A stretch of 64,000 nt of DNA from Candidatus Micrarchaeota archaeon (GTDB lineage Archaea; Micrarchaeota; Micrarchaeia; Anstonellales; Bilamarchaeaceae): contig JBBSVN010000005.1 in the NCBI GenBank assembly GCA_038046765.1, positions 32,001 through 96,000 of the forward strand. Reading direction: 5' to 3'. The notes under the pieces are model-generated. The model was not told the origin of the DNA. It saw nothing but the letters and a program-made list of their open reading frames with translations, and did not search any database. The translations under genes and the position numbers were made by a program. Shown in pieces: positions 13,315 through 35,358 of the stretch (positions are counted from its first letter, which is position 1; every line of letters starts with the position of its first letter).

Positions 13315-13531
13315 TTATATCAAAATATCTAAAAACTGCTCTTTTTGTAGATTTCTCCAGACTGTCATTCTTGAAACGTTTAAGATTTGTGCAATGTTTC
13401 TGATTGTCTTTCTTTCTTTGTAGTACAAGTCGCTAACAAATTTACTTTGTTCATCGTTTAGTACGCTTTTTCTCCCTACTCTATTTAGTTTAAGGTTGTG
13501 TTTCTAAACACCCTGCAGATTGTTTTTCCAT
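13315..13531 (-). CDS. Small HTH protein whose start and HTH domain lie in different frames (+1 recoding or pseudogene)
   Basis: GAGGTG RBS + MEKQSAGCLETQP*; +1 frame encodes ...GRKSVLNDEQ...IRNIAQILNVSRMTVWRNL...*. Confidence 0.65.
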
Positions 13532-13742
13532 AACTTTCACCTCAAGGTTTTCATTCTAGCTAAAGCTAAATCCTTAAGGAAAAGAAATTTTGAAAAAAAG
13601 TTATTTATTTTCTTATTAAGGATTTAGTCAAAACTAGGTAATTAGCATGTAGTTGTTTCTGTAACTAAATCCATTCTTATCATTTGTATCAATTTCATTT
13701 GGTTTTAATTTATTTATAAAGGTTTGTCACGAATTAAATCTT

Positions 13743-14777
13743 CTATTGGAGCAAATTCGACCATTCACTTTGATTGATGAAAAGTAAATCGTGCATTTCT
13801 TTGAATTTTCCCTGTTCAAAAGCACACTGCGCAGCTTCTGCAGCTATTTGGGCATTTGGGTCGATATTTGTTAATGGAAAATCCCTATAAATTATTTGCA
13901 CTTGTCCTGTGTCAACATAATTCGAGACTATCATTCTATAGGCTCCTGTATAAAATCTGCTACAAAAAGGAGACTGGAAATCGCAGAATTCTATAATTAA
14001 TATGGGTGCGTTGTAGCTTCCGATATATGGGTCATCATCAACAAATGAACTTGTTTTGATATTAGAATTTACCTTGTTATTTGCCAATTCAGCTTCAATT
14101 GCAGCTTGGAATGCAGAATATGGTTGGGCACCGACTAATGTTTGTGGAGTCCCATCTCTTCTTCCTATCATAAATGAAGGTACACCTTGTATACCTAATG
14201 CTAAACCATCTGAAAAGTCTTTTTGTATTTCATTACTGTATTTTGAAGTATCTAAACAAATATTGAATTTTTGTGTGTCTAAACCGATGCTGGAAGCGTA
14301 TTGTTTTAGTTTGGATTTTACGATATTTGCTGGTGGGGTATTTGGGATTATAGTTGGTGTATTTGGAGCTACAGTTACGTTAGTTTGATTTGCAATTTTT
14401 ATCTCTTCTTTTTGTTTTTCAGTTTTGTTTGGTATCTTATTCTTGACAACTGTACACAACACTTTTTCAGAACTTTCATCAATTAATGTTAAAGCATCTA
14501 CATCTTTGGAAATCATTGTAATCTTATAATAAGCTTTTATTTCAAATGCTCTGCCACAATCTTTCTTGAAATTCTCAATTTCATTACTAAAAGATGTTTC
14601 ATCCAGATATGTTACTGTTATGGTCGAATTTGGATAATTTTCTAAGAATTGTTTTATTTGGGGTTGATTCTTTGCTATTTCTTGATATGCTGCTGCTTTG
14701 TTTGACCCAACGCATCCTCCAATTAAAATAAAAATTCCGATTATAAGAATAAATAAATTTTTCATAGTGTAGACCAT
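13743..14777 (-). CDS. Secreted/lipoprotein DsbA-like thioredoxin-fold protein, permuted domain order
   Basis: Signal with GGC; GVPSF..GAQPYSAF precedes DDDPYIG..IEFCDFQSPFC..YRDFPL. Confidence 0.8.
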   Translation of the reverse strand: MVYTMKNLFILIIGIFILIGGCVGSNKAAAYQEIAKNQPQIKQFLENYPNSTITVTYLDETSFSNEIENFKKDCGRAFEIKAYYKITMISKDVDALTLIDESSEKVLCTVVKNKIPNKTEKQKEEIKIANQTNVTVAPNTPTIIPNTPPANIVKSKLKQYASSIGLDTQKFNICLDTSKYSNEIQKDFSDGLALGIQGVPSFMIGRRDGTPQTLVGAQPYSAFQAAIEAELANNKVNSNIKTSSFVDDDPYIGSYNAPILIIEFCDFQSPFCSRFYTGAYRMIVSNYVDTGQVQIIYRDFPLTNIDPNAQIAAEAAQCAFEQGKFKEMHDLLFINQSEWSNLLQ

Positions 14778-14835
14778 TAATACTTAGTTTCCTAAGTATA
14801 TACTATTAATACTAAAATTTAAATTATAATCGTTC

Positions 14836-15030
14836 ATGGAAACAAAAAGAGAAGTTTTGACTATGAATGTCAAAAAAATTGTACCTTGGGCAACAGGCCT
14901 TGCCTTATTTGTTACTAAAGAAGCAAAAGCACTAAGCTGGACAGATAAGGATCAAGTCATAATAACTGCATTTAGGGATGAAACTGGGGAAGGAATAGAA
15001 ATTAGACGAGCACCAATAAAAAGGAAATAA
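14836..15030 (+). CDS. Small AbrB/MazE-like protein
   Basis: KKIVPWATGLALFVTKEAKALSWTDKDQV pattern resembles swapped-hairpin proteins. Confidence 0.45.
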   Translation: METKREVLTMNVKKIVPWATGLALFVTKEAKALSWTDKDQVIITAFRDETGEGIEIRRAPIKRK

Positions 15031-15105
15031 TTTGTATTTTTGCAATTTTCTATAAAAATGTTCAAAAAGGATACTTTTATAAATTTATGAATTTATATTA
15101 TATTT

Positions 15106-15170
15106 GTGGTTGTAAGTCCTCTGAAAGCTATGAGGCCTCCGTGAGTGAGGGTGGGAGCAAGTAAGTTGGG
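15106..15170 (+). ncRNA. Putative small RNA convergent on DUF3800 gene
   Basis: GC-rich island with two CCTC/GAGG hairpins; TTTATAAA box ~25 nt upstream. Confidence 0.45.
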
Positions 15171-15794
15171 TTACCACATTTTATTAATTATTTTTATCTT
15201 ATTCTTGATTAAATCGTAATACTGCGTATTTTTATGTTCTAACTTATGAAAAAGTGCACCGCAGAAAAAATCAACTGCCTGAAGACTGCATTCTTCATCT
15301 GATTTTTTATGGTCAATGCAAAGATTTTCTTTTAGTTTAAGAGGAGTACGAAACTGCATGATATAATCATCAAAAGAGTTTCTTGCTGATTTGTAAAGTG
15401 ATCTATCAAGAACTATATGCACTTTAGTTGTGTGATTTGTTCCCTCTGTTAATAATACGTGCTCAATTAATCTACCGACAATAAAATTGTAAAGTATTGG
15501 CGGTGTTTCTTTTAGATTACTGTTTTTGGTATTCTGTTTGTCTATAAAATAAGCATAAAATGAAACTTCTGTTCTTGCTAATTGTTCCAATATGAAAGTT
15601 CGCATATCTTCGTCAGTTTTAGAAAACTTGAATTCTGGAATATCACTAAGTTTTTTCTTTAGTTTGTTTCTTGCTTTTTTAAATATTTTTTGCATTTCTT
15701 TTGGTTCATTTAAAGTTAACGCACCGACTATAAAATGTTTTGTCGAGTTTTGTGAAAAACCGAGGTCTCCTGACTCATCTATGAATATAAACAT
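15171..15794 (-). CDS. DUF3800 family protein (RNase H-like)
   Basis: MFIFIDESGDLG, EFKFSK, LQAVDFFCGA. Confidence 0.88.
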   Translation of the reverse strand: MFIFIDESGDLGFSQNSTKHFIVGALTLNEPKEMQKIFKKARNKLKKKLSDIPEFKFSKTDEDMRTFILEQLARTEVSFYAYFIDKQNTKNSNLKETPPILYNFIVGRLIEHVLLTEGTNHTTKVHIVLDRSLYKSARNSFDDYIMQFRTPLKLKENLCIDHKKSDEECSLQAVDFFCGALFHKLEHKNTQYYDLIKNKIKIINKMW

Positions 15795-15835
15795 CGTACT
15801 CGTGCGCTCTTATTTTAGTATTTCTATTATCATCT

Positions 15836-16834
15836 CTAGAACAATAAAATTACAATAACCCCAAACACAACTTCCAAACTAATAAAGAACATCGAAAGGT
15901 CTTTCTCGCTAATCCCGTTAAATGTTTTCATAACTAGCTGTGCAAATCCCCGAACTTTTCCGCCATATGGGTAAAGCTTGCCGTTTTTATATTCGCCCCA
16001 CCATTCACGACTTGGAAACTTGTTCATTGCTTTAATTAAGAAATCTACTGCATAAGGGATCATGAGTATTACTCCTGCCGTTTCAAAGTTTCCTATAATT
16101 ACTCCAGCTGCTAAAACTGCACCGATTGTTAAATTTCCAACATCTCCCGGGAATACTTTTGAGGGATATTTACTATATATAAAGAATCCAATTAGTGCGC
16201 CTAGCATAGATAAAAACAAAACAAGCATTTCGCTTGAACCCTTTTTAAGTGCTAAAATTGACATCGTTGCAAAAATAATTATTCCCATACCCGCTTCCAT
16301 TCCGTTAAAACCAGCTAGCATGTTTGTTAAATTTGACGCTACAGCCATTCCGATAGGGACTAAAAGAAAAAGGTAAATCATCCCTAAATCAATCGAACCT
16401 AAAAACGGAATAGTTACTGCGGTGCTTCCTGCTGCAACTGCTATTAATGGAACTGCGGCAAAAAGAGGTAAAAATGCCTTAAGCCATTGCGGGACATCTA
16501 ATAAATCATCAACCATTCCGATAAACGCGATACTGTGGATTGTAATAAGCGCGGCTAAAACTTCGATCAAATTAAGTTTAAACCCTAAAAATGAATTAAG
16601 AAAAACAGCTAATAAAACTCCTCCTGTAAATCCTGCGACTATTGCGATTCCGCCCATTTCTGCTACTTCTGGCATGTCTGGTTTGTTTATATCTTTGCCA
16701 GTCATCTTAAATCGCTTTAACCTTGGAATTAACAAATAAGTAAATACGTAAGTAACCAGAAATGAAATTACTATAATTCCAAGCGAGCCTAATCCAACCA
16801 TAAACTTAACCTTTGATCTCATTTTTTCTTGCAT
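15836..16834 (-). CDS. UDP-GlcNAc:polyprenol-phosphate GlcNAc-1-P transferase (GT4/MraY-like, AglH-type); start probably near 16801
   Basis: GKDINKP, EMGG, GMVDD, NMLAGFNGME, VFPGDVG. Confidence 0.9.
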   Translation of the reverse strand: MQEKMRSKVKFMVGLGSLGIIVISFLVTYVFTYLLIPRLKRFKMTGKDINKPDMPEVAEMGGIAIVAGFTGGVLLAVFLNSFLGFKLNLIEVLAALITIHSIAFIGMVDDLLDVPQWLKAFLPLFAAVPLIAVAAGSTAVTIPFLGSIDLGMIYLFLLVPIGMAVASNLTNMLAGFNGMEAGMGIIIFATMSILALKKGSSEMLVLFLSMLGALIGFFIYSKYPSKVFPGDVGNLTIGAVLAAGVIIGNFETAGVILMIPYAVDFLIKAMNKFPSREWWGEYKNGKLYPYGGKVRGFAQLVMKTFNGISEKDLSMFFISLEVVFGVIVILLF

Positions 16835-17963
16835 GTAACTTCATATGCCCTTCTTGTATTCCTGTTGTTGATAGGGCGTACATTGCAGCAAAATTATTTG
16901 CTAATCCAGCGCAAGCAATTGCCATAGCTAAATCCTGTGATGATTTTGCACCAAGAATTTTTAATGCTAGTTTAGCAGTTGGTAACGTATTTATTGCTCC
17001 ACCAACTGTTGCAATTGCTAATGGCAATTCGATCGAACCAACTAAATCTCCATACTCATCTTTTTCATAGTGCGTTAGCGATGTGTATCCTTTTCTTTGT
17101 TCTTTAGTTGCGGCATAAGCATGCGCTCCGGCTTCAACTGCGCGCCAGTCATTTCCTGTAGCTAGTACAACTGCATCAATCCCGTTCATTATTCCTTTGT
17201 TATGCGTTGCGCATCGATAAACATCATTTAATGCAAATTCGTAAGCATCTAAGAATTTTTCTATCGTTTCTTCTCCAATAATTTCCTTTTTCCAAACTGC
17301 TTTTGCCCGAACCATTCTTTTTGTTGCTAAGTTACTTAGTATTCTAAGGCGAACTTCGCTTTGGGTGTACTCTGCAATTGTTGGTGAGATTTTTTCTAAA
17401 AATGTATTAATTGTATTTGCACCCATTGCATCTGCAACATTAACATAAAAATAAACAATTATCATTTCTCCCCTGTTCGTTTCTATTAGTTTCATTTTAA
17501 AGTTCTGTACTCCGCCTCCGTACTTAGTTAAAGACTCGGTAAGTTTTTTTGCAAGAACTAATATCTCATCTCGCTTTGCGTTTAGTGTTTCAATCGCTTT
17601 TTTCGGGTTTTTAACATTGACCAGTTGAATCTGGCCGATCATAATCGATGGATCTGCTGATGCAGTAAATCCATCTGGTAAACATAATTTAGCTGCTTTA
17701 CTAGCTCCTGCAATTACGCTTGGTTCCTCAATAGCCATCGGGATGATTTTTTCAGTTCCATTAATCTTAAAGTTCATCGCTAATCCTAGCGGCAAGTGAA
17801 TCGCACCAATTGTATTTTCGATCATGGTGTTCGCAGATTCAAGAGAAAGTGAACCGCTGTTTTTAAGTAAAATTAGTTCGTCATCGCTTAAGCTAAGTTC
17901 TTTCTTTAAAATCGCTAGCCTTTGTTCTAAGGATAGTTTATAGAAACCAGAGAAATTTGACAT
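16806..17963 (-). CDS. mvaA: HMG-CoA reductase, class II
   Basis: IENTIG, EEPSVIA, DAMGAN, ATHNKGIMNG, GNDWRAVEAGAH, GIQEGHMKLH. Confidence 0.95.
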   Translation of the reverse strand: MSNFSGFYKLSLEQRLAILKKELSLSDDELILLKNSGSLSLESANTMIENTIGAIHLPLGLAMNFKINGTEKIIPMAIEEPSVIAGASKAAKLCLPDGFTASADPSIMIGQIQLVNVKNPKKAIETLNAKRDEILVLAKKLTESLTKYGGGVQNFKMKLIETNRGEMIIVYFYVNVADAMGANTINTFLEKISPTIAEYTQSEVRLRILSNLATKRMVRAKAVWKKEIIGEETIEKFLDAYEFALNDVYRCATHNKGIMNGIDAVVLATGNDWRAVEAGAHAYAATKEQRKGYTSLTHYEKDEYGDLVGSIELPLAIATVGGAINTLPTAKLALKILGAKSSQDLAMAIACAGLANNFAAMYALSTTGIQEGHMKLHARKNEIKG

Positions 17964-17995
17964 AAATGATATTTGGATGGATAGTTTTAAAGGAG

Positions 17996-18475
17996 CTACT
18001 TATACCCATCTTCAACCCTGGAAATGGCTTCTTCTATATCCTTAAAAGCAGTAGTTACTTTAGAAATGTAAAATTCCTTTAATATTTCTGAAATTTTGCG
18101 CTCATCCCCGTTACCAAAAAATATCTTTCCTTTTTTACGGTCTATTAAACCCATTTCTTTAAGCTTCAAAATATGGTAATAAACTGCCTTCGGGTAAACT
18201 TTATCTTCTTCAGTTTTTCCTTCATCAAGCTTTGCAATTATTTGTTCGGTTGTTGGCTGTTCCTTTTTAGCGTGAAAATAAAAGAGCGCATCTAGTATTT
18301 CAAGAAGTAATTGCCTTGTTTCATTTGGATAAATTAAACCTAATGATAATGCAATCCATCTAATTAGTGATTTACGTGCTAGTTTTACATCTTCTGGAAG
18401 CGACATTTCCCGAATAATTAATTCGTTTCTAATAAGTTTTGCTTCTGGAATCATTTTTATCAAACTTCTTATCAA
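17996..18475 (-). CDS. Archaeal wHTH-like protein
   Basis: WIALSLGL..ETR, YYHILKLKEMGLIDRK. Confidence 0.65.
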   Translation of the reverse strand: MIRSLIKMIPEAKLIRNELIIREMSLPEDVKLARKSLIRWIALSLGLIYPNETRQLLLEILDALFYFHAKKEQPTTEQIIAKLDEGKTEEDKVYPKAVYYHILKLKEMGLIDRKKGKIFFGNGDERKISEILKEFYISKVTTAFKDIEEAISRVEDGYK

Positions 18476-18505
18476 AGGTAAATTATAAAAAATAACTTGG
18501 TAAAC

Positions 18506-18563
18506 TATCTTTCGATACGATGTTTTTTTTGTTTATTAATCTTTCTATCAATATCGAAAGATA
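18506..18563. promoter_or_regulatory. 12-bp inverted repeat abutting the TATA box of the HTH/NTase pair; likely operator
   Basis: TATCTTTCGATA ... TATCGAAAGATA followed by TTTAAATA. Confidence 0.55.
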
Positions 18564-18592
18564 TTTAAATAAGAAATGCTATTAATAGAATC

Positions 18593-19177
18593 ATGTTATC
18601 TAAGAAAGAAATTATTTATCGTTATCTGCTTGATCAGTACTTTGAGAAAAAACAGTTTAAGTTTACTCAAAGTGAACTAGCTAAATTTTTTCATATTTCC
18701 TTAAGCACAGTAAATAATGCACTTAAGCCATTACGTGCTATGGGAGCAGTAGAAGTTAAATCAAGAAGTTTCAACATGTTGGACTCTAAGAAATTGATTT
18801 TGTACTCTGCAACAATAAGAAAATTTGAAAAAGACATAATCTATTCAACAAGGTATGAAAATTCAGTTTCAGAAATGGAAAAGCTAATGCCTTCTGGTGC
18901 TGTTTTTACTGCTTATAGTGCTTATAGATTCGCATACAAAGATGCTCCTTCGGATTACAGTGAAATTTATGTCTATCTTTCCAAAGAAGAATTAATAGAA
19001 ATAAAAGAACGTTTTCCACCTAAAACTGGGTCTCCAAATTTATTTGTTTTAGAAAAAGATTCTTTTATTAGGAAAAACAAAGTTTCATCTTCCCAAATTT
19101 TCGTAGATTTGTGGAACATTAGAACCTGGTATGCTAAAGAGTATTTAGATGCAGTTGAAAAAAGGTTATTTTTATGA
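18593..19177 (+). CDS. wHTH protein, AbiEi-like antitoxin/regulator
   Basis: FTQSELAKFFHISLSTVNNAL HTH; overlaps downstream NTase gene. Confidence 0.65.
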   Translation: MLSKKEIIYRYLLDQYFEKKQFKFTQSELAKFFHISLSTVNNALKPLRAMGAVEVKSRSFNMLDSKKLILYSATIRKFEKDIIYSTRYENSVSEMEKLMPSGAVFTAYSAYRFAYKDAPSDYSEIYVYLSKEELIEIKERFPPKTGSPNLFVLEKDSFIRKNKVSSSQIFVDLWNIRTWYAKEYLDAVEKRLFL

Positions 19178-19803
19178 TCGAGAGAAAAATTAAGGAATTT
19201 TGGAGTGAAGAAGTTACAAGTGCAAGCTGGATAAGGCTGCTTGAGTTATCTAAAAAATACGATTTTATTCTTATTGGTGGATGGTCTGCTTATATGTGGA
19301 CAAAAACTCATAAGTCCAAAGATATTGATATCGTAGTTAATTATCTGAGCCTGGAAGTGTTAAAAGCAGACTTTTCATTAATAAAAAATGAACGGTTGGC
19401 AAAATACGAGATCAAACAAGATAATTTTGACATTGATGTTTATGTTTCTCATTATTCTAAACTTGCATTACCTGTTGAAATCTTAGAAAAACATACTGCA
19501 AAAGTGGAAGGTATAACTACCGTTACACCAGAAATTCTGGTTATCTTAAAGCAGGGTGCAGAGATTGATCGAAGGGGAAGTATAAAAGGAAAGAAGGATC
19601 AAATCGATTTGCTTACTTTGCTTATTTACTCGCCCTTTGATTTTAAAAAATACCTAAATCTAATTGGGGAGTTTAAGATGCAAAACTACAAAGATGAGCT
19701 TGTAAGAGTAGTTAAAGAATTTAACGAAAAAGATATTTCTTACCTTAGTTTTGATCATCAGGAATTTATAAAGTGGAAAAAAGAGTTTTCTAAAAAACTC
19801 TAA
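19174..19803 (+). CDS. Nucleotidyltransferase-fold protein (AbiEii-like)
   Basis: LIGGWS, SKDIDIVV, LK..A, KGKKDQID. Confidence 0.7.
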   Translation: MIERKIKEFWSEEVTSASWIRLLELSKKYDFILIGGWSAYMWTKTHKSKDIDIVVNYLSLEVLKADFSLIKNERLAKYEIKQDNFDIDVYVSHYSKLALPVEILEKHTAKVEGITTVTPEILVILKQGAEIDRRGSIKGKKDQIDLLTLLIYSPFDFKKYLNLIGEFKMQNYKDELVRVVKEFNEKDISYLSFDHQEFIKWKKEFSKKL

Positions 19804-19804
19804 T

Positions 19805-20491
19805 TTATCCCATCAATTCATTTAATATTTCATAAGCTATCTTTGTATCTGCCTGCTTTATTACAAAATTCGTATCTGTATAGCATGAAACAAATTCAAC
19901 AACGTTTATTCCTTCGCTAGCTAATGATTGGAGAATATGTGCAATAACGCCTGGTGTTTCTTCAAGTTCGACTGGGCTGTGCACTGAAACCAGATTTAAA
20001 TTTATTTCGCTGGTTACGATGTTTCGTTTTGAATTTCTATCTATCTTTTCAAATTCTTTCTCATCTATAATGTACGTGATTGTTCCTTTACTCTCCGCGT
20101 AAGAATAATACTTTAGTTTTTCTATTTCTTTAGTTGAAATTACAACTGCAACTTTGCTTCTTATTGTTAAAGAACTTCTTTTTAGTACGTTTAATATTTT
20201 ACCTTCCAAATCTTCTTCTTTTTCTGCATTTTTTTGCGTTAAACGTACAAGTGCCATTTTTATTGCATTCACAAATTGTAAGTTTGATTTCTCATTTTGT
20301 GAAGTTTTGACCGAACCACGGTCAAACTGATTTTCCTTTTTGTTCATTCCAAGTTCAATTGATATTTTTCTAGCTAGGGATGAATAGTTTACTATCCCTT
20401 CACGTATGAGTTCTTTTAGGAACGGTCTTCGTTTAATGTAAAGTCGAACTAGTTCGCTTATTTTTTCGCTAGATTTTGCAGGTTCTTTCAT
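19805..20491 (-). CDS. HTH + ACT-domain protein (contains a 69-nt structured insertion)
   Basis: GIVNYSSLAR, TPGVIAHIL..LASEGINVVEFVSCYTD. Confidence 0.85.
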   Translation of the reverse strand: MKEPAKSSEKISELVRLYIKRRPFLKELIREGIVNYSSLARKISIELGMNKKENQFDRGSVKTSQNEKSNLQFVNAIKMALVRLTQKNAEKEEDLEGKILNVLKRSSLTIRSKVAVVISTKEIEKLKYYSYAESKGTITYIIDEKEFEKIDRNSKRNIVTSEINLNLVSVHSPVELEETPGVIAHILQSLASEGINVVEFVSCYTDTNFVIKQADTKIAYEILNELMG

Positions 20492-20573
20492 GTTACAAAT
20501 AGAACAGTAGTGTATTAAAATATAACAGTTGTTACGAAAAGTTTAAATGTGCGTTTTTGTGCATTAGTAGCTG

Positions 20574-21827: not shown

Positions 21828-21884
21828 CTTGCAATTTGGGAGTTTGTAATAAATCTTGCTGAACTCTTAATCTAAAAAGGGGTA

Positions 21885-24083: not shown

Positions 24084-24816
24084 TTATTTCCCAAACCTTC
24101 TCATTCTGTTTGCGTATTCTTTTAATGCATCATCAAAATCTGCCTTTGTAAAATCCGGCCAGAGCTTTTTAGAAAAATATAATTCACTGTAACTAGTTTG
24201 CCAAGACATTAAACCGCTTAATCTTTCTTCGCCCGAAGTTCGGATAACTAAATCTGGATGTGGCAAGCTTGCTGTGTATAAATTCTCCTCAATTATTTTT
24301 TCATCTACTTTTTTTATTCCCTTAGAAATGATCTGATTTACTGCATCAACTATCTCCTGTCGTCCACCGTAAGCTAGTAAAAGATTTAGCTGATATTCAG
24401 TATTTTGTTTGCTTAATTCTTCAGCTTTTTTTATCATTTCTTGTATCTTGACTGGAAACAAACCAAGTCTTCCAAAGAATCGCACGCGAACATTATATTT
24501 ACCCTTTTCATCGCTCATTATCGCTTTTTTAAGATTATCAGTAAATAGTTCAAAAAGAGTTGAAACTTCATTTTCATCGCGATCAAAGTTTTCTGTACTA
24601 AAGCCCCACATTGTAAGCATTTTAACTTCTGATTCTTTGCACCATTTTAAAACTTCCCCAATGTGCCCGATGCCTGTTGCGTATCCTTCTTTTATGCTTT
24701 TTTTATTTTCTTTAGCCCATCTCCGGTTTATGGCTATATAGTTTTTTATTCTATAAAGAACTAATTTTTCCATCCGGGATAATGGCTATATGTTTTGGTA
24801 CTTCTTTTTCATCCAT
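24084..24816 (-). CDS. uppS: Polyprenyl (undecaprenyl) diphosphate synthase, split: join(24768..24816, 24084..24727)
   Basis: Exon 1 MDEKEVPKHIAIIPDG + exon 2 NRRWAKE...FSTENF...YGGRQE...IRTSGEERLS...RRFG. Confidence 0.92.
24728..24767 (-). other. Candidate 40-nt BHB/BHL-type mRNA intron in uppS
   Basis: Outer helix CCGG/CCGG, central helix AUGG/CCAU, AAA bulges; cutting after the 2nd bulge nucleotide gives GAU GGA AAC CGG (D-G-N-R). Confidence 0.85.
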
Positions 24817-25774
24817 GTTTCTTTAACCCCCTATCTATTAATTTTAATGAATTAAAATTATCAATAAATTTGAGTATGTCTGCCTGATTTTGTATCACTA
24901 ATATACTGGCTGTTGTAATTTTTCCATTTCTTATTCCATTATCCTTGTAAATATGCGGTCTTTCAATTCCCATTTTTATTAATATTTCTAAACATTCCTC
25001 TAATATTCTTTTGTTGTGTTGCTTTATGGATATTCTTCTTACTTTGTTTTTAACTATGCTTACACTACCATCTGCATCAAAAAACCCAGCTAAAAAGTAT
25101 TTTTGTAATTCTAAGTTATTTAATATCTTCGGGACATTTGTTTTTTCCTTTTTATTTCCTGTTGGAATTTGGCAAATTTTAGTTAGAAAAAGGTGGATTA
25201 CTTTTGATCGTCCGATCAATCTGTAAAAATTATGCTCCTTAAATAAGGGCGGTTTGTAAGCAAATAACTTGATAAATATCTCTTGTAGATATTCTAAATG
25301 ATGTTTATCAATTGTTGTAATTCGAATCTCTGCGTTATACTTTGATCCATTTCCTATCGTATCATTGGGGTTAGCTAAATGTCCATCACCCATAATATAT
25401 CCTAACAAATAAGCAAGTGACGAATCAATTTGTTTAGGTAAAATGTATTTTTTTGTATTCGTTCCACCTAAATATGTTATTTTTTTGTATAATTCTAGTT
25501 CAGTAATCTGGAGTATTTCTGCTAATTTCAATAATTCCGAAATTGGTATTCCTACATCTCTTTTCGCATCCCCTAACCAGTTTATTATATTCTTGTATTT
25601 GTTGTTACTCATTTTAGCTATTTCTTTGTAAGTATTTTTTCCGAACTTAGTTTTTAAATAATTTTTTATGCTATAAGCTCGTACTTCGTCGTTTCCCTTT
25701 TCCTTAGTTATTTTAAGGTCTTGAATATAACTTCCAAGCTCTATAACTGGGTTCTTGTCCACCATATCAATCAA
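24809..25774 (-). CDS. Free-standing LAGLIDADG homing-endonuclease-like protein with N-terminal HTH
   Basis: YLLGYIMGDG and FLAGFFDADG motifs; no intein splicing termini; AT-rich. Confidence 0.85.
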   Translation of the reverse strand: MIDMVDKNPVIELGSYIQDLKITKEKGNDEVRAYSIKNYLKTKFGKNTYKEIAKMSNNKYKNIINWLGDAKRDVGIPISELLKLAEILQITELELYKKITYLGGTNTKKYILPKQIDSSLAYLLGYIMGDGHLANPNDTIGNGSKYNAEIRITTIDKHHLEYLQEIFIKLFAYKPPLFKEHNFYRLIGRSKVIHLFLTKICQIPTGNKKEKTNVPKILNNLELQKYFLAGFFDADGSVSIVKNKVRRISIKQHNKRILEECLEILIKMGIERPHIYKDNGIRNGKITTASILVIQNQADILKFIDNFNSLKLIDRGLKKHG

Positions 25775-26834: not shown

Positions 26835-26903
26835 ATATTATATCATCTTTATCTGTTTAAAAAGGTTGTTATTGTAAATATTTTATCTCTATTCTATTAG
26901 TTT

Positions 26904-27863: not shown

Positions 27864-27864
27864 T

Positions 27865-28353
27865 TTAACCTAGCGGGTTGTAGTCATAAGGTTGCTTATA
27901 TGTAAATAATATTATTGAAGTGTTTGTCCTGATTATATCTGAATTTTCAATTATTTTTCTTTGAACCTGACTCATCTCATCTCTGTCCTTGACTCTAAAT
28001 AATGCCGCAACGTCATAATTTCCAGTTATTGCGTATAATGCCTGTATTTGTGGTATTTTTGTTATGCTTTCAAGTTGTTTTAAATCTCCGGTTCTTCCTT
28101 TTTTTACCTTCATGAGTACAAGTGCATGAGTATCCCAACCCAATTTTCTAAAATCAATATCTATTGAATATTTTTTTATTACTTTTTGTTCCTCCAGTTT
28201 CTTGATTCTTTGTATTAATGTGTTCGGGTGAGACCCCACTTTCTGAGCTAGTTTTCTTATTGATTGTTTGCTATCTTGCCTAAGTTCTCTTAATATTGCT
28301 AAATCTATCGCATCTGCAACAAACTCTATATTACTTTTTGTCATGTTAATCAC
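27865..28353 (-). CDS. Lrp/AsnC transcriptional regulator
   Basis: DAIDLAILRELRQDS HTH, RIKKLEEQKVI, ITGNYD. Confidence 0.92.
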   Translation of the reverse strand: MINMTKSNIEFVADAIDLAILRELRQDSKQSIRKLAQKVGSHPNTLIQRIKKLEEQKVIKKYSIDIDFRKLGWDTHALVLMKVKKGRTGDLKQLESITKIPQIQALYAITGNYDVAALFRVKDRDEMSQVQRKIIENSDIIRTNTSIILFTYKQPYDYNPLG

Positions 28354-28481
28354 TCTTATATAAATAGTCCTAATAATATGTTTTTGTATGTTCTTTTTTT
28401 AAATACATTGTTATTTTTTCACAGTATTTTATACAAAATATATAAATATTCCACTTTTCTAAAGCGTTTTAGGTGTAAACT

Positions 28482-28901
28482 ATGAGGAGTGTAACTATCT
28501 TAGCGCCGGACCGAGAGGGTCTTCTAGCAGATATATCTTATGTTCTTGGTAAATCAAACATTAATATCGAATCATTGAATGTTGATGTTCTTGGGAACAG
28601 AGCAATTATCTCTATACTGGTTAAGGATCAGAAAAGGGCAACTACTGTTCTGCAACAAAATGGTTTTGAAACTGCAGAAAATTCACCTTTAGTAATTAAG
28701 GTTCCAAACAATCCGGAAGCACTGCCTCAAATTGTTGCGCGTTTAGATCAGCAAAAAGTACATGTTGAAGAGCTGCTTATGCTTGGCAATGATTCATCTA
28801 TAGGTATATTTGCAATAAATGTAGATAAACCAAGAAAAGCCGTAAAAATCCTTAACGATGTTTTAATTAATCCTAATATTGCGACATTACAATTTCAATA
28901 A
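28482..28901 (+). CDS. Tandem ACT-domain protein
   Basis: DREGLLADISYVLGKSNINI; second ACT-like repeat. Confidence 0.85.
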   Translation: MRSVTILAPDREGLLADISYVLGKSNINIESLNVDVLGNRAIISILVKDQKRATTVLQQNGFETAENSPLVIKVPNNPEALPQIVARLDQQKVHVEELLMLGNDSSIGIFAINVDKPRKAVKILNDVLINPNIATLQFQ

Positions 28902-28911
28902 ACTGATTTTG

Positions 28912-30015
28912 CTAAGTTGTAATTTTATCTAGCTGCTTACTTTTTATTCCCTGTTTTATTTCCATCGCAATTCTTCTGCCATAGCTTAAACTGTCTCCGA
29001 AAAGGTAGCCAGAATATGGCGTATAAGCAGTTCCGGGTGATCCAGGAATTCTAAATGAGATATCAAAACAGAAAAACTCTTCCTTACCGCCACTGTTTGT
29101 TATCGCTCCTTGCAATGCAAATGGTCCGATAATTCCTGGAGAAAATTCTTTCTTACAAATATCCACTAATTTTTGTGCACTTTCGAATATATTCTCAAGT
29201 AAACTTTCTCTAAGCGTGCATGCGATATGTCCAACTTCTATGTTATTTACTGATAAATTCTTAATCGAAAGTTGTTCTCGAGCTGGCAATCTTAATACTC
29301 CATCTAAATTCGTCTGCCTTCTTGTGTCTATTCCAAGTAATTCTAATTCTTTTTCTATTGGTGAATAAAAGAAATTAAAATTAAATTGCGCACCGACTAC
29401 AAATTCCTCAATTGTAGCTATCTTCAAATCTTCTCTTTTTATTTTTCCTTCTTTTATGAGTACCTCACTTTTCTCCACATACTCATCATAACTGCCCGCA
29501 AGGAAAAATGCTCTTTCATAGCTGCGTGCTGCTTCTTTTGCCTTTACAATAACTAACCTGTCGATTTTTTGAGGTGAACTTATTTTTTCGGGTTGTTTTA
29601 TCCCACCTTTAGTCATAAGATAATGTTGGTTCTTACTTTCCTCCCGCTCTTCAGCCCGAAGCAGATTCCGATTCCCAAAAACAGGTATATCAAATTTCTT
29701 TTCGATATTTTCATATCCCAAATAAACTGCAAAACTTCTGTTTGGTACAAATATCGCATTCTCATCCTGGAGTATTTTGATATTTTTAGGTTCAACTATA
29801 TCTACGAATTTTGAAACTAGCATATTCTTGTCTACACAGCCGATTTCAGTTTCTCCTCGTGGTCTGGTTTTATAGTGCTGTGTATATGTTTTATCTCTGC
29901 CTTTTTGTGCAACGACTATTGTCCTAAAGCCCTCTTTTTTAGCTCCCTGACAAACGTCAAGAGCAGAATGTGAGCCTATTGTTGCTATAGTATAATCCTT
30001 CATAAAATCATCCAT
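28912..30015 (-). CDS. PurP-like ATP-grasp protein (second paralogue)
   Basis: ATIGSHSALD, VPNRSF, ERAFF, DTRRQTNLDG, GPFALQ, RIPGSPG. Confidence 0.9.
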   Translation of the reverse strand: MDDFMKDYTIATIGSHSALDVCQGAKKEGFRTIVVAQKGRDKTYTQHYKTRPRGETEIGCVDKNMLVSKFVDIVEPKNIKILQDENAIFVPNRSFAVYLGYENIEKKFDIPVFGNRNLLRAEEREESKNQHYLMTKGGIKQPEKISSPQKIDRLVIVKAKEAARSYERAFFLAGSYDEYVEKSEVLIKEGKIKREDLKIATIEEFVVGAQFNFNFFYSPIEKELELLGIDTRRQTNLDGVLRLPAREQLSIKNLSVNNIEVGHIACTLRESLLENIFESAQKLVDICKKEFSPGIIGPFALQGAITNSGGKEEFFCFDISFRIPGSPGTAYTPYSGYLFGDSLSYGRRIAMEIKQGIKSKQLDKITT

Positions 30016-30030
30016 GTTCTATTCATATCA

Positions 30031-30798
30031 TTACTTTGCTTTTATTAGTTTAAGTATGTTTTCCCTACCCTTCTTTATCCTTTTTATTAAACCAAGAACT
30101 TCCATTTCAGATATAATTAAACTCATTTTCGTTTCTGAAAAGTTTAAGATTTGACGTAGTTCTCTTTGAAGAATTCTGCCTTCGTTATCCTGCATTATTT
30201 TTACTATTCTACTAATTTCCTCATCTGGTTTTTCTTTTATTATACCTTGCTCTTCAATATTCTCATCATTGTCATTTTTATTTTCGAGAGTTTTGTTGTT
30301 ACTCGTTTCAATTGCCTGCGTTTTTCCTAATTTTTTTACTAATATATAAATTGCGATTGCTAATCCAATTAATCCTATAATTAAGAATCTATAATCTTCC
30401 AAATTTCCCTTAATTATTTCATTTTCATTAGGTAAGTCCTGATAATTATCCAATATATCATCTATTTGGTCGGGAGCTAAAAGGACAATGTCAAAATTCG
30501 TTTCATTTCCCATTACATTTATGGGATCTTTTGAATACAATAAGAGTTTTCCGGATTCGAAATAAGATGCACTTATATTATAGTTCCCTTCACTTAATTG
30601 TACTAAGTAATTTTGGTTCGCGATAAATTGGGTTGTCCCAACTCCTTCTATCTTTATGATTGTATTATTTATAAGTTCAAAATTCTCTCCATTGATTATG
30701 TCTCCATAAATAGTGGTGGCATTTAGTAAAGTAAGAAATAACAGAAAAGAAGCCAAGATCACAATGTTCTTATTCGTGGATTTTGTTTTTATCTTCAT
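30031..30798 (-). CDS. Membrane-anchored protein with C-terminal wHTH
   Basis: Signal peptide, TM, GRILQRELR..SETKMS..GLIKRIKKGREN. Confidence 0.8.
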   Translation of the reverse strand: MKIKTKSTNKNIVILASFLLFLTLLNATTIYGDIINGENFELINNTIIKIEGVGTTQFIANQNYLVQLSEGNYNISASYFESGKLLLYSKDPINVMGNETNFDIVLLAPDQIDDILDNYQDLPNENEIIKGNLEDYRFLIIGLIGLAIAIYILVKKLGKTQAIETSNNKTLENKNDNDENIEEQGIIKEKPDEEISRIVKIMQDNEGRILQRELRQILNFSETKMSLIISEMEVLGLIKRIKKGRENILKLIKAK

Positions 30799-30864
30799 TA
30801 TAAATACCTTCTTAAATTGTCTTTGAAAGTATGTATTTAAATACTATAATCAAAGAACTTTACT

Positions 30865-31338
30865 ATGACTAATACAATCTTAAAATCATTTTTGTTATTT
30901 TTGTTCTTATCAATAATAACTTCTAGTTATGCTTTTAGTGTGCCTGTAACTAAATCCACTCTTCTAAAAAACTATTATGATCAATTTGAGTGTAACCTTG
31001 ATTTCTACATTTCGGTTTCAGAAGGGACGGCAGCGTATGATTCCAAAGCAGCTCCCATATTATCCAAACTAAATACTGAAAAATCTAACCTTAAGTCCTT
31101 TGCTCTAAAGAACGATGCTAAACGATTTAAGAGCTCATTAATCTCCTTTAGGGATCAGGTAAAATCTGTTGCTAAAAATTATAATCTCGTTCAAAAATCT
31201 CTAAGCATCAAACAACCAATTAAACGAAAGGAAATGGCTGCTTTATTGAATAAATTAATCAATGCTAAAAAGTCTTGTCTAGCGCAACAAAAATTAAAAA
31301 GTTCCACGCAAAATTCTATTTACACTCCGTTCGATTAA
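30865..31338 (+). CDS. Hypothetical secreted protein
   Basis: N-terminal signal peptide. Confidence 0.55.
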   Translation: MTNTILKSFLLFLFLSIITSSYAFSVPVTKSTLLKNYYDQFECNLDFYISVSEGTAAYDSKAAPILSKLNTEKSNLKSFALKNDAKRFKSSLISFRDQVKSVAKNYNLVQKSLSIKQPIKRKEMAALLNKLINAKKSCLAQQKLKSSTQNSIYTPFD

Positions 31339-31379
31339 TTGTTCGATTTGTTTAGTGAACTAAATATAAAACCAAAAAT

Positions 31380-32654
31380 CTAGTTCTTCCTGATTTCAAT
31401 TATTTTTTTATCTAAGTTTTTAAAATTCTTTATTCTGTCTAGTTGCGGGAGAAATAACCTTAATGCAATTTCTATGTTTCTTATTTTTCTTTTTACTTCT
31501 GCCTTTATTCTCCCTGCTTCTATAAACATCCTTGACTTAGCATGTGCTTTTTTAAAATCCCGAAGATGCTCTTTCCTCTTTATTTCTGGTCCGATCATTA
31601 TTCTAAATTTGCTCAATTCTTTTTCTTTTAATCTTAAAATTATCCTTATCTTATTTTCGTTGACATCTATTAAACTTTGGAGAGTTTTAAATCCATTTTG
31701 TCTAAGATAATTATTTAATAATTTTTCGCTTCTTTTTATTTGACCCCACAATATGTCCTCGTTTAAATCTGGTTTTAAGATTTCTAATTCGTATATGTGC
31801 TCATATTTGGCCTTCATCTTAGCAAGCTTTTGCTCAAAAGTCTGGGGGTCATCAAAAAACCTTTTTGTTGGATTTTTCAGGAATTTTTTTGTAAGTTTTT
31901 TAAATATTTTAAAGTTATTTAATGAAAATGCAGCAGCTACATTTCTATTCCTGTCTGTGGGGTCTATGAAAATTAATGGAGCGTTAAATTTTTTTCTAAT
32001 CCTATCGATTTCTGTTTTTTTATCTATCTTTTCTAGCTGTAATAATGTTCCCTCCTCCCAGTTCTGCGCATTTTTCAATGTATTTAGAAACGTTTTATAC
32101 TTTAGTATCAATAGTTCGCATAAGTAGCCTGAGATTCCTTCGTATCTAATTTGTGCACCGTATAATTCATTGCTTTTTAAGAATTTTTTTAGTAGTAATA
32201 CCTCCTCTACCATATCTTTTTTTAGGTTTTTTATAATATACTTTGTATGTAATACACTTCTATCTACTGCGCTTGCCATTTCCGTTGCATTTTTTATTCT
32301 ATAAGCTGGAACTACATCTATTTTTTTACCCTTATAATATAGTTTTATGTAAGGATGTTCTGCATAAGATATCTCGTATCTTTCATTGGGAAATGCCTCT
32401 TCTACGCAATTTCTAACTACTATTTCAAATTCATTTTTATTCTTCTTCCTATCAAAAAGTAGAAATATGTCTATATCCGTACTTTGCCGAAGGTATGTTC
32501 CTTTTGCGATACTTCCTACAAGTACTGCAATAAACTCTTTGGATGTGGCCTGAAGCTTTTTTATACACTTCGCTGCAAGCTTCTTCTCATATCTATCTTC
32601 TTCTTTTGTTGGTTTTATACCTTCTAGCACATTCTTTAGAAAATCATCTTTCAT
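31380..32654 (-). CDS. cca: CCA-adding tRNA nucleotidyltransferase (class I)
   Basis: GSIAKGTYL, DIDIF, YAEHPY, DVVP, SAVDRS, GISGYLCELL, DPTDRNRNVAAA. Confidence 0.95.
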   Translation of the reverse strand: MKDDFLKNVLEGIKPTKEEDRYEKKLAAKCIKKLQATSKEFIAVLVGSIAKGTYLRQSTDIDIFLLFDRKKNKNEFEIVVRNCVEEAFPNERYEISYAEHPYIKLYYKGKKIDVVPAYRIKNATEMASAVDRSVLHTKYIIKNLKKDMVEEVLLLKKFLKSNELYGAQIRYEGISGYLCELLILKYKTFLNTLKNAQNWEEGTLLQLEKIDKKTEIDRIRKKFNAPLIFIDPTDRNRNVAAAFSLNNFKIFKKLTKKFLKNPTKRFFDDPQTFEQKLAKMKAKYEHIYELEILKPDLNEDILWGQIKRSEKLLNNYLRQNGFKTLQSLIDVNENKIRIILRLKEKELSKFRIMIGPEIKRKEHLRDFKKAHAKSRMFIEAGRIKAEVKRKIRNIEIALRLFLPQLDRIKNFKNLDKKIIEIRKN

Positions 32655-32691
32655 ACATAAATTTTAAAATGAAAACTATTTAATCAATGCT

Positions 32692-34953
32692 ATGGCAAGA
32701 AATTTAATTTTTATTATGTTAATCTCATTAGTTCTTTTATCTGGTTGCACTTCAAAGAGCCTGGAGTCAGGAACTCAAAAAGAATTACTCATACGTCAAA
32801 ATACGTTTGATCTTGATGAAGATCAACTTATTGACTATTCGGTCTTTACTTTTTCTACTATAAATTATCCATCGGTTAAATCCTCTTCAACTCGTCAGTT
32901 GTTTGTAACTACTCAGTATGCTCCTGAGTCTATTTTGCTAAACTCAGTTAACTTGAGTACTGCAGTACAATTACAATCTTACTTTAATTCATATATCTCC
33001 CAGAGAACATCTGTAGAATCTTCTTGTAACGCTAAACTTGGCTTAAATGTTGCAGGTTGTTCAAGTTCTAAATCTTGTGCAGACATTTGCTCTTCATCAT
33101 CAGTACAATGCAAATCTTTAGTTAATTCTTACGGCGATTTTATCGGGGACTCCCTTCTACTGTACCAAAGTGATTTTAACGATTTAAAATCAACTGAAGC
33201 CCAAGTTTCATCGTTAATTAATAAGTTGCCATCTATTTCAACAGAACAACAAACAGATCTGTTAAACAAATTATTCTACCTAAAAAATAAGATTATTCAG
33301 ATTAAAACCAATCCGCTTGTTACTTTAAATTCTGTTAAAAGTTGTGACATGGAAAATTTGTCTGAACAAAACCTTCTTTTAGTGACTTCTTCATTAGCTA
33401 ATTACACTCTTTCACCGTCTTCTTATAGATATAATACTCTTTTATTAATTGCATTTAATCAGGCAACAACAGACTCAAACCTAAAGTCAGCCCAAGCTTC
33501 ATTTACAGATATAATCCCTTCAACATTATCTGCAAGTATGAGTTCAATTCTAGTTTCCCCAAGTACGACTTTTACTGCTGGTACCCATGCAGGAAGTAGT
33601 ATTTCGTCTCATGCAATTAAGCCATTACCCCCTAACACCGTGTCATCTTATAGTTTTATTTCAACAGCCGCGCCCGTTGACGCGCTTACCCAAATTCAGT
33701 CCCCCAATATAATATTTACAATTTCCGACCTTGGATTCGCATCTTCTATTGGCGTTGTTTATTCACTATTCTTTTCAATAACCTCTAATTTCTATGTATC
33801 ATTCTCTTTGGCGCTTACGATATGCTTAATTATACTGTGGGTTTTGTTTCAACTTATATACCTAGTTTATAACCTGATTACTGCTTCGCAATCTAATCAA
33901 CCCTTTGGGTCTGCCCTTAGATCTACTTTTGGCAGGATTAAGATTAATTGGAAAGCTGACCTATTTGTTGCGATTGGTGCATTTATATTTGGGCTGCTGG
34001 TAAGTTTTGTCTCCACACCTGCAAACGCTTCCTTGGATTTTTTATCTATTATTGATTTAGCGTTTTCGGATTTTAAAATTCTTGTTTCCTTAGCTTTGTT
34101 TTCTCTTGGGTTTATGTTTGTATATTTTGCATTTGAAAATAAAGTCAAAGTATTTCTCATGGAAAAATATTATGGAAGAGCTATATACGAAGAAAAAAAT
34201 CTCAATATATCGCGAGCAACAGAGTTAAAATCAAGCTCGCGTGAACTTAAGTCTCTTTTGGATGTTATGACTAAAGAAAACTTTGATGTTGGAAATGAGT
34301 ACGAAATATTAACTCCTATTCCAGAAGACCGTATTAATACTTTATCTGCAAAAGCAGATTCATATTCAAGAAAAGTTATTGATGAAGAATTATTTAAAGT
34401 AGAAGATACTTTGCGTAAACTTCAGGAAAGGCGTAAACTTGCAATCGAAAGGTGGCCTTTATGGGAAAAATCCATGTCTGAATTATTTAGTGAAAACGTT
34501 GAAGTTTCATCTTCTTCACTTACCTTTATCCCAAGTCCCCTTCGTGACTGGGCACTTAAAAAATATCTTAGTGCACACTCTAATGAAAACGTTTCCTTGT
34601 CTGGTGAAACTTTAAAAAGAAAAACTATTACTGCAGAAAAAACTGCCGAAACATTCGTTAACAAAGGTTTAGTTCATGGTTGTGTTATAATTCGGGATAA
34701 CAAAATTTCATTTTCCTCCCTAACTGAAGGCAGCTCAACAATGTTTGGTGTACTATCTTTTAAGCTTATCGAGGATCTTAAATCTCTTCCAAAGTATCTT
34801 TCATTCGGAGTAGTACATTCTTCGGTTTCTGTTGGTGAAAAATACGTGTTTGCATTAATTAGGCAAAAGACAATTGACAGCGTACTTATTCTTGAAAAGC
34901 CTAAATTCAAGGAAGCTATTGAAGAATGGAAAACGAAGATGAAAGGCTTCTAG
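32692..34953 (+). CDS. Large membrane lipoprotein: Cys-rich extracellular region, TM segments, cytoplasmic tail
   Basis: LSGC lipobox, Cys cluster, 3-4 TM segments. Confidence 0.65.
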   Translation: MARNLIFIMLISLVLLSGCTSKSLESGTQKELLIRQNTFDLDEDQLIDYSVFTFSTINYPSVKSSSTRQLFVTTQYAPESILLNSVNLSTAVQLQSYFNSYISQRTSVESSCNAKLGLNVAGCSSSKSCADICSSSSVQCKSLVNSYGDFIGDSLLLYQSDFNDLKSTEAQVSSLINKLPSISTEQQTDLLNKLFYLKNKIIQIKTNPLVTLNSVKSCDMENLSEQNLLLVTSSLANYTLSPSSYRYNTLLLIAFNQATTDSNLKSAQASFTDIIPSTLSASMSSILVSPSTTFTAGTHAGSSISSHAIKPLPPNTVSSYSFISTAAPVDALTQIQSPNIIFTISDLGFASSIGVVYSLFFSITSNFYVSFSLALTICLIILWVLFQLIYLVYNLITASQSNQPFGSALRSTFGRIKINWKADLFVAIGAFIFGLLVSFVSTPANASLDFLSIIDLAFSDFKILVSLALFSLGFMFVYFAFENKVKVFLMEKYYGRAIYEEKNLNISRATELKSSSRELKSLLDVMTKENFDVGNEYEILTPIPEDRINTLSAKADSYSRKVIDEELFKVEDTLRKLQERRKLAIERWPLWEKSMSELFSENVEVSSSSLTFIPSPLRDWALKKYLSAHSNENVSLSGETLKRKTITAEKTAETFVNKGLVHGCVIIRDNKISFSSLTEGSSTMFGVLSFKLIEDLKSLPKYLSFGVVHSSVSVGEKYVFALIRQKTIDSVLILEKPKFKEAIEEWKTKMKGF

Positions 34954-35054
34954 TTTTGTAGCTTCTTCCCAGTGTTTTCCTTGGGACACTTATTTAAATA
35001 TATTTCTTTACCTTAATATGTTATAAAAAATAAAATCATTTGAGGTGAAAATAC

Positions 35055-35358
35055 ATGGGAAGAAGCGAAAACGTAGCTTGTAAAAATGTAAACGGGTGTT
35101 TAGAAATCCAGTAAAGGAACTGTTAATCTAACAAATAAAAATGAAAATCGAAAGTCTAGTTTTAATAAAAAAGTCGAACTTAAAAAGTCAGTTTCTCTAG
35201 ACGGGGAAAAGTTAAACCAATTATTTAAAGCATATTATTCTAAGCCATACTCTTTGCGGCAGCTTGCAACCATGTTTGGAGTTAGTCGTATGACTGTTTG
35301 GCGAGCTGTGCAAAACTTTGTGCCATCTACTATTGGGGCTAACCCCTCTTTTTTATAG
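35055..35358 (+). CDS. Small HTH protein, start and HTH in different frames (+1); paralogue of 13315..13531
   Basis: GAGGTG RBS + MGRSENVACKNVNGCLEIQ*; +1 frame ...YSLRQLATMFGVSRMTVWRAV...*. Confidence 0.65.

Follow-up and report, generated by a model that had tools for sequence, protein, structure and literature searches.

A putative amino-acid-sensing +1 frameshift cassette in helix-turn-helix and biosynthetic genes of Micrarchaeia

Two start-less helix-turn-helix genes and their relatives

The stretch analyzed here (the window; 64,000 nucleotides of contig JBBSVN010000005.1, Candidatus Micrarchaeota archaeon) contains two paralogous helix-turn-helix (HTH) genes, copy 1 and copy 2, in which the reading frame is broken at the same place. 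In both, a Shine-Dalgarno (SD) sequence, GAGGTG, and an ATG open a short leader, and an HTH domain containing VSRMTVWR and having no start codon of its own follows in the +1 frame. The initial annotation read this arrangement as programmed recoding, and the features it listed are all present: leaders that run for 13 and 19 codons and stop at UAA-A, spans of 217 and 304 nt, and a shared 13-mer whose two exact occurrences in the window, one in each leader, are also the only ones in the 1.5-Mb genome. With two mismatches allowed, the window holds 4 occurrences against a chance mean of 2.5, which is chance level, so the weight of the 13-mer lies in its placement and not in its count.

Copy 1 is linked to thrS, the threonyl-tRNA synthetase gene, and comprises the following features.

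13725..13731, minus strand: YGTGACA motif, a candidate operator or B recognition element (BRE)-like sequence, directly upstream of the TATA box (pattern scan)
13713..13720, minus strand: TATA-like box (consensus match only)
13538..13543, minus strand: leader SD GAGGTG, complementary to the genome's 16S tail, GAUCACCUC
13490..13531, minus strand: zero-frame leader open reading frame (ORF) of 13 codons, ATG at 13531 (from the sequence)
13509..13513, minus strand: internal SD-like GGGUG, 4 nt before the proposed peptidyl-site (P-site) codon (5-bp duplex with the anti-SD, about -6.5 kcal/mol)
13499..13504, minus strand: proposed shift site, with P-site GAA (re-pairing on AAA) and ACA (Thr) as sensor codon in the aminoacyl site (A site)
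13315..13503, minus strand: start-less +1 ORF with an HTH_7-like three-helix domain (ORF reading, Pfam)
13126..13272, minus strand: SD-less 48-codon ORF with its stop overlapping the thrS start (ATGA), a possible second relay (ORF reading)
11252..13129, minus strand: thrS, the proposed target of the Thr-codon site (protein match)

No ATG, GTG or TTG precedes the HTH domain in the +1 ORF of copy 1, the predicted trans-frame product is 71 aa, and a +1-frame UAG directly before GAA bars an earlier shift. The HTH stop lies 185 nt from thrS, with the SD-less 48-codon ORF in between. Beneath that ORF is a repeat (window 13143-13286) that recurs at G000:C9:743-886 (82%) and, in shorter form, at other places in the genome.

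Copy 2 is arranged in the same way on the opposite strand, next to an orphan gene.

34983..35000, plus strand: GGGACA motif and TATA-like box (from the sequence)
35042..35047, plus strand: leader SD GAGGTG (16S tail complementarity)
35055..35114, plus strand: zero-frame leader ORF of 19 codons, ATG at 35055 (from the sequence)
35094..35098, plus strand: internal SD-like GGGUG (anti-SD pairing)
35103..35108, plus strand: proposed shift site, P-site GAA and A-site sensor codon AUC (Ile)
35104..35358, plus strand: start-less +1 ORF, linker and HTH_7-like domain (ORF reading, Pfam)
35372..35818, plus strand: orphan gene of 148 aa, its SD overlapping the HTH stop (ORF reading)

Here too the +1 ORF has no ATG, GTG or TTG ahead of the HTH domain; the predicted trans-frame product is 100 aa. 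The orphan has no Pfam or NCBIfam match and is likely translationally coupled to the HTH gene. Copy 2 is convergent to gyrA (window 36780-40718), as are ten Ile-site HTH loci; this gyrA holds an intein with LAGLIDADG domains, and a free-standing LAGLIDADG ORF lies at window 24809-25774.

Beyond the two genes first noticed, the genome contains two more HTH paralogues, and all four have an SD-led leader with the HTH in +1. HTH genes of this kind occur in 77 of the 99 genomes from the taxonomic family, 126 of the 176 from the order and 109 of the 401 sampled from the phylum; close homologues belong to Ca. Micrarchaeota, some of them to Bilamarchaeaceae or Bilamarchaeum. We analyzed 155 distinct loci, which are part of all matches. 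Assigned by the best SD-led start alone, 104 were +1, 33 in frame, 15 in frame 2 and three unclear; after inspection, which reassigned 14 loci, the figures became 100, 45, 7 and 3. Continuous relatives, which the initial annotation held would speak against recoding, do exist (45/155), but most loci (100/155) carry the break. A further 20 regions, 13 of them from other orders, yielded 21 HTH matches, 12 with an SD-led leader overlapping the HTH ORF in +1, none with an in-frame SD start, one with a weak frame-2 candidate and eight with no candidate.

A frame-blind test gave a similar result. Of 59 matches to GGTG[GT]TNNGAA[AG] upstream of the HTH core, 58 place the core in +1, and the lone exception belongs to a neighboring paralogue (0.2 matches expected). 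The motif was derived from the first 30 loci; later-numbered loci give 47/48, five being re-fetches. It is absent from the in-frame relatives (0/33). The linker (1257 codons) contains no stops in the HTH frame vs. 198 and 53 in the other two, and the HTH cores are under purifying selection (dN/dS, the ratio of nonsynonymous to synonymous substitution rates, 0.16 over 25 disjoint pairs). Among 99 +1 loci, 39 have no ATG, GTG or TTG before the core and 59 have SD-poor ones only. Contigs from three studies, one of which may be the source study, run across the break of copy 1 without a gap and are identical at it. Taken together, these observations make it almost certain that the break represents real programmed recoding.

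Both +1 ORFs match Pfam HTH_7 best, with 30.6 bits for copy 1 and 22.7 for copy 2 (gathering cut-off 23.8). A structural model of the family has three helices (mean predicted local distance difference test score, pLDDT, 89.8), and its structural matches are weak and generic (best Foldseek E 0.05). The three helices and Gly-Arg N-terminal arm resemble HTH_7 (resolvase HTH) and DeoR/SorC-type domains; unlike HTH_7 resolvases, the window HTHs stand alone with no recombinase domain. In the family, where +1 loci have only about 8–46 leader codons before the HTH and the homologue search covered 44–140 aa, a serine resolvase catalytic domain was not found. Since the HTH is under selection, it probably binds DNA as well. 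YGTGACA is a candidate for its operator: by one pattern it occurs at 41/104 +1 loci vs. 0/33 in-frame loci, three of its five strict genome matches are at HTH genes, and related words (GTACA, GATACA) precede other promoters.

An SD-led gene begins at the HTH stop in 59/98 +1 loci, compared to 5/43 in-frame loci. This arrangement fits termination-reinitiation coupling, which has been demonstrated in Haloferax (PMC6728339).

Several other patterns were seen within the family. In seven loci with the HTH in frame 2 (L029, L069, L072, L073, L075, L079 and L085, the last a minus-strand HTH) the leader ends NGG UGG U(G/C)U CUC UUU stop, which could reflect either two +1 slips or one slip at UUU-stop, -1 or +2. 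An in-frame subfamily of genus g19 (L108, L113) lies directly downstream of the 16S rRNA gene. In-frame genes of families f6/f8 (L009, L121, L125, L126, L136, L152, L153) follow a conserved upstream ORF of 28–29 codons whose stop falls inside the HTH gene's SD, and the f6 loci have in common a long, conserved-looking 5' region without an Rfam match. Database gene calls place many HTH starts at an ATG or GTG spanning the spacer and GAA codons, which hides the leader (P0003-P0028).

Position and architecture of the shift site

The conserved element, which we refer to as the cassette, consists of an SD-like sequence, one spacer codon, GAA followed by a purine (GAA-R) or CUU followed by a pyrimidine (CUU-Y), and the codon that begins with that base. 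Conservation covers about 24 nt around GAA. The +1-frame UAG stands directly before GAA in 15 loci, both window copies among them, so the shift is not earlier; the leader stop can be as near as two codons past GAA, so it is not much later. UAG read-through that would permit an earlier shift was considered and rejected, as UAG terminates leaders and genes. Substitution periodicity across leader and linker gave no signal with which to place the shift, and both look neutral.

The slippery codon is GAA in all 59 GAA-type sites and never GAG, against a background GAA share of 0.64. Among protein-selected loci, a purine follows GAA in 66/66 cases (background 0.69) and a pyrimidine follows CUU in 23/23 (background 0.36). 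This is the rule that wobble re-pairing one base forward requires: by established decoding rules, tRNA-Glu with anticodon UUC could re-pair on AAR and tRNA-Leu with anticodon GAG on UUY. In the CUU form the internal SD is AGGG(A/G)U, one codon ahead.

Paired with the genome's own 16S tail, the internal element forms duplexes of -5.3 to -9.4 kcal/mol, and its positions are invariant or nearly so. The AGGGAU type lies 3 nt from CUU and the GGGUG type 4 nt from GAA (2 nt when GGGUGGU pairs). At normal starts the SD spacing is 5–8 nt in 215/229 cases and never below 4, making the GGGUG-GAA spacing shorter than almost all. A 3-nt spacing boosts +1 shifts in bacteria (PMC5009743). The initial annotation's suggestion of an internal SD-like GGGUG acting as in bacterial prfB is supported, and a ribosomal +1 slip at the GAA or CUU site is very probable.

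We found no conserved RNA fold or 3' RNA stimulator: the consensus structure is empty and the mean z is -0.05 for the 60 nt 3' of the site. An Rfam scan of 16 loci, including copy 1 and three trp-linked ones, returned rRNA and tRNA matches only. A nascent-peptide signal (GWCEIQ-like) was considered as well, but the fixed synonymous choices (GGG for 67/67 Gly, GAA, AUC, CAG) argue for nucleotides, and His, Pro and Trp cassettes encode wholly different peptides; the peptide may contribute at RWH(E/D)FN leaders before trpB. A scan of metagenome contigs with a loose pattern gave no HTH matches among the matches listed (at least 119 stretches).

Sensor codons and the genes they precede

The cassette is not confined to HTH genes. 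Scans of the window's own genome located similar sites in four others: trpE (CUU-UGG) and three genes of an operon ending in hisS (CUU-CAC, CUU-CAU twice, CGG-CAC). The first gene of that operon is an AbrB-like ORF with two tandem sites in successive frames, which puts the ORF in +2; this double form recurs in other genera. The SD-ATG-cassette pattern with CUU-Y gave 112 matches in 61/99 family genomes, compared to 18 for a reversed control, and the GAA-R pattern gave 36 matches in 29/127 genomes, compared to none.

The sensor codon usually corresponds to the amino acid of the pathway under control, and the purpose of the site therefore differs from the one first proposed. For trpE, six of the 29 anchored loci (30 fetched) carry the cassette, all six with UGG, and TrpB-like genes or trpE lie downstream of seven HTH loci whose leaders contain UGG. 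Histidine cassettes were identified in hisG (six, one a weak Pfam match), hisD (three) and hisI (one), all with CAC or CAU. An internal hisG is in frame in 28/28 anchored top-scoring loci, while 25/31 family genomes with hisG have a cassette match at most 5 kb upstream on the same strand, whichever gene comes first (sensor codon read only in fetched genomes). Proline cassettes precede proB (glutamate 5-kinase-like; five) and ProC (three) with CCA or CCG, a cysteine synthase has UGC, and five LeuA/CimA-family synthases have AUC or AUU.

Threonine is represented by thrS, which lies downstream of nine HTH loci, all with ACA or ACC, and of two more at 2–2.6 kb. It also stands behind three non-HTH cassettes (ACC, ACC and ACU); in two, a featureless +1 ORF of 44 or 50 codons ends at the thrS start, and one uses the window's exact 13-mer. 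The window's GGG UGU UUA stretch precedes His, Pro and Ile sites in enzymes too. Overall, six of eight pathways match their sensor codon (exact permutation P 0.0003), or four of six without thrS and LeuA/CimA (P 0.006); these P values are optimistic, given that discovery was pattern-based and kin are not independent.

A protein family of about 340–380 aa carries His-codon sites and has no Pfam, NCBIfam or Atlas match (Atlas query, a 382-aa protein); in the window's own genome a member shares an operon with a VanX-like dipeptidase, a racemase and hisS. Radical S-adenosylmethionine (SAM) genes carry His sites in other genomes (loci for this family and the radical SAM genes: L362:2230-3378; L401, L404, L405, L410, L415, L416, L420, L421, L460, L477). 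DIT1/PvcA-like isonitrile synthase genes occur behind a Thr site before thrS in one genome and behind a Phe-site HTH in the window's own (L504, L024). ARAGORN at default settings detected only 8 tRNA genes in this genome, which is rated 90% complete; introns or unusual tRNAs may hide others.

Proposed mechanism, alternatives and significance

We propose, with a probability of roughly three in four, that the cassette is an amino-acid sensor working by hungry-codon +1 frameshifting, comparable in effect to attenuation. Sequence comparison shows the architecture with its conservation, the selection and the codon-pathway match, while the ribosomal mechanism, the exact site, the response to starvation, the coupling and the function of the HTH are inferred. 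A ribosome would start at the SD-led ATG and translate the short leader until the internal SD-like element pairs with the 16S tail, somewhat nearer the P site than at normal starts, while the P-site tRNA rests on the slippery codon, which is GAA ahead of a purine and CUU ahead of a pyrimidine. With ample charged tRNA for the following codon, the frame would be kept and translation would end a few codons on; when that tRNA is scarce, the P-site tRNA would re-pair one base forward (tRNA-Glu from GAA to AAA) and the +1 ORF would be entered. That ORF may be the enzyme itself (TrpE, HisD/G/I, ProB/C, cysteine synthase, the LeuA/CimA family) or a small carrier, whether an HTH protein, the AbrB-like ORF reached by two successive His-site shifts, or a featureless ORF of 23–50 codons, with a stop that would abut the next gene's start.

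Applied to the window, copy 1 is probably a Thr sensor controlling thrS, such that a shortage of charged Thr-tRNA would be reported to the synthetase gene; candidates for carrying the signal across the gap are the HTH protein, the 48-codon ORF as a relay, and ribosomes covering the transcript. For copy 2, Ile sensing is the slightly favored reading, in which an Ile-tRNA shortage would be reported to the orphan gene and perhaps also to targets of the copy 2 HTH.

Several observations weigh against this interpretation. Isoleucine is its weakest part. AUC is the commonest HTH sensor codon (43/59 GAA sites), and AUC sites lead mostly to orphans, with or without an HTH, some adding a same-frame Leu site. 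The only Ile-pathway neighbor of AUC-site HTHs was a candidate thiamine pyrophosphate (TPP)-enzyme fragment among the 95 of 190 neighbors scanned, and no Ile-pathway genes were found among 81 downstream ORFs of HTH loci. The genome of copy 2 itself has no LeuA/CimA-family match, leaving copy 2 with no matching target. The AUC sites may signal branched-chain or general starvation.

Codon matching is also imperfect. There are two mismatches, an aspartokinase with Tyr and ArgB with Pro, and several of the His, Pro and Cys genes were found via the CUU-Y pattern, which restricts sensor codons to those starting with a pyrimidine. Most trpE (23/29) and all 28 anchored top-scoring hisG are ordinary in-frame genes. 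Four of 15 Thr-codon HTH loci have no thrS nearby, and the Thr HTHs are close relatives; copy 1 ends 185 nt short of thrS, and a cassette of this kind lies within 1.5 kb in only 4 of 17 anchored top-scoring thrS loci, which means that thrS mostly goes without one. As for the slip, GAA to AAA retains only two of three pairs, some slippery sites (CGG, CGC, GCC, GGC, CAU) re-pair poorly, and the GAA type, 4 nt from GGUG, does not clearly have prfB's 3 nt. AUC is strongly favored over AUU, and the AUC CAG stop is conserved more than the model needs.

Among alternatives, the one that survives best, though unlikely, is a +1 frameshift at the same site with a set ratio that merely keeps expression low and senses no amino acid. 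All the frame and selection evidence fits it, most AUC-site genes are orphans with no Ile link, and there is a precedent in FseA (PMC4755241); it may apply to the Ile and orphan class even with a regulatory enzyme class. What it fails to predict is that Trp, His, Pro, Cys and Thr codons stand ahead of matching genes and are kept through synonymous changes (CAC/CAU, CCA/CCG, ACA/ACC/ACU, AUC/AUU).

Less probable again is that the leader stalls at the cognate codon and acts downstream by transcription attenuation, polarity or non-standard reinitiation, with the +1 ORF entered without tRNA slippage. The codon-pathway match would suit any stall sensor, an in-frame TTG overlaps the leader end in the own-genome trpE, and in +1 AAA is often immediately preceded by ATG, GTG or TTG, where gene callers start. 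Yet many orthologues have UAG, UGG or GCG at this position, which is only 2 nt from GGUG, closer than any real start, and an in-frame start is missing from the usual place in three of six trpE cassettes. RNA structure is not conserved, and stalling leaves the strict +1 relation, the GAA-R/CUU-Y rule and the +2 frame behind double sites without explanation.

Correction at the RNA level is very unlikely, be it polymerase slippage dropping one base or splicing of the bulge-helix-loop (BHL) mini-intron, 3n+1 long, that the initial annotation offered as an alternative. The AAAC/GUUU helix is indeed present in copy 1, but GUUUAG is kept in only 11/59 sites and no consensus structure is predicted (no exhaustive per-locus BHL search was run). 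Homopolymer runs at the site are only three bases long, the motif keeps the leader's reading frame in 57/59 cases, which an RNA-level event does not need, and codon-pathway matching is left without a reason.

The initial annotation placed the slip at the leader stop codon, a version that would sense release factor as in prfB, and we now consider this highly improbable. Both window copies end UAA-A and the stop is exactly three codons on in 38/59 GAA-type sites; over all 59, it ranges from 2 to 18 codons downstream with all three stops and all four following bases, and in three loci it is not reached until the HTH's conserved Gly-Arg arm or later. Re-pairing on AGU is not possible for CAG, the usual last codon, and in enzyme cassettes a sense codon takes the place of prfB's UGA. 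A shift at the stop could be a minor added route in copy 1, with its CCU-UAA ending. Sequencing or assembly errors or pseudogenes, conceivable in that all genomes are metagenome assemblies, can be virtually discounted given the identical copy 1 break in three studies, 100 loci with the same +1 relation and a dN/dS of 0.16.

Among known systems, the closest in mechanics is the prfB (release factor 2) +1 frameshift, with an SD, 3 nt and CUU-UGA-C (PMC5009743, PMC3711429). The cassette shares with it a short zero-frame leader, an internal SD and one spacer codon, and would resemble it in CUU slipping to UUY and in an output set by the slowness of A-site filling. It differs in that the A site is an exchangeable sense codon and not UGA, its genes do not encode release factors, purine-starting codons are served by another slippery codon (GAA, used as GAA-R in the window copies), and the cassette is archaeal and found on many unrelated genes.

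In bacteria, leader-peptide attenuation (trpL, hisL, pheL, thrL) and T-box riboswitches read tRNA charging and turn on biosynthesis or synthetase genes. As in these, a cognate codon would read the charging of one tRNA, and the tandem His sites resemble attenuator codon runs. Unlike attenuators, the cassette shows no terminator/antiterminator or conserved fold, its genes lack a usable start of their own, usually one codon is involved, and what would change is the reading frame, in many cases within the enzyme gene. By this comparison it is like prfB mechanically and like attenuators and T-boxes functionally, yet departs from each in a defining respect.

Other frameshifts are more distant. Hungry-codon frameshifting and the yeast Ty1, ABP140 and EST3 sites (CUU-AGG/AGU; PMC5009743) rely on constitutively rare tRNAs or are errors, unlike the cassette. 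The nearest +1-made regulator is FseA from msi172-msi171 of a Mesorhizobium integrative and conjugative element (ICE), with a UUU-C site near the end of a long ORF and 4–13% efficiency (PMC4755241); it too is a DNA-binding regulator with a G-rich stretch ahead, of which continuous and split versions coexist, but it has no codon-pathway code. Programmed frameshifting is known in archaea: a 2021 review names fucA1 (-1) as the one cellular case and gives +1 for a virus only (PMC8211752), while haloarchaeal virus tail genes (-1, with HSTV-2 likely +1) and Mg-chelatase (A_AAA_AAR) are described in PMC8211752 and PMC5009743. Unlike the cassette, these are heptamer or viral sites on single genes, none an SD-stimulated +1 chromosomal site and none a regulon. 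We found no description of the present system in a literature search largely limited to the main text of open-access papers; the predicted frameshift clusters listed with PMC3711429 could bear on this.

Most likely, then, the amino-acid-sensing cassette is a previously undescribed kind of regulatory system, about 25 nt long. If so, tRNA charging could be read in a third way besides attenuation and T-boxes, and the cassette would fill a gap marked in a 2016 review, in which hungry-codon frameshifting has no known starvation-specific trans-frame products (PMC5009743). Among archaeal chromosomal genes it would also be the first case of a regulatory +1 frameshift stimulated by an SD, and would mean that elongating archaeal ribosomes scan with their anti-SD.

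On a broader view, which we favor somewhat, Micrarchaeia would possess an amino-acid regulon run by one programmable cassette of internal SD, slippery codon and exchangeable sensor codon. The slippery codon would be chosen by the first base of the sensor codon; sites in successive frames would act as AND gates (the AbrB-like His ORF) and sites in the same frame as OR gates (Leu + Ile HTHs); and the signal would be relayed through translational coupling. Ile-site HTH and orphan genes, which are numerous, would then make up a regulon for general starvation, and what unknown genes do would be predictable from their sensor codons, much as it is from T-box specifier codons. Broken-looking his, trp, pro, cys and leu/ile genes would be functional, which would affect auxotrophy calls for DPANN archaea.

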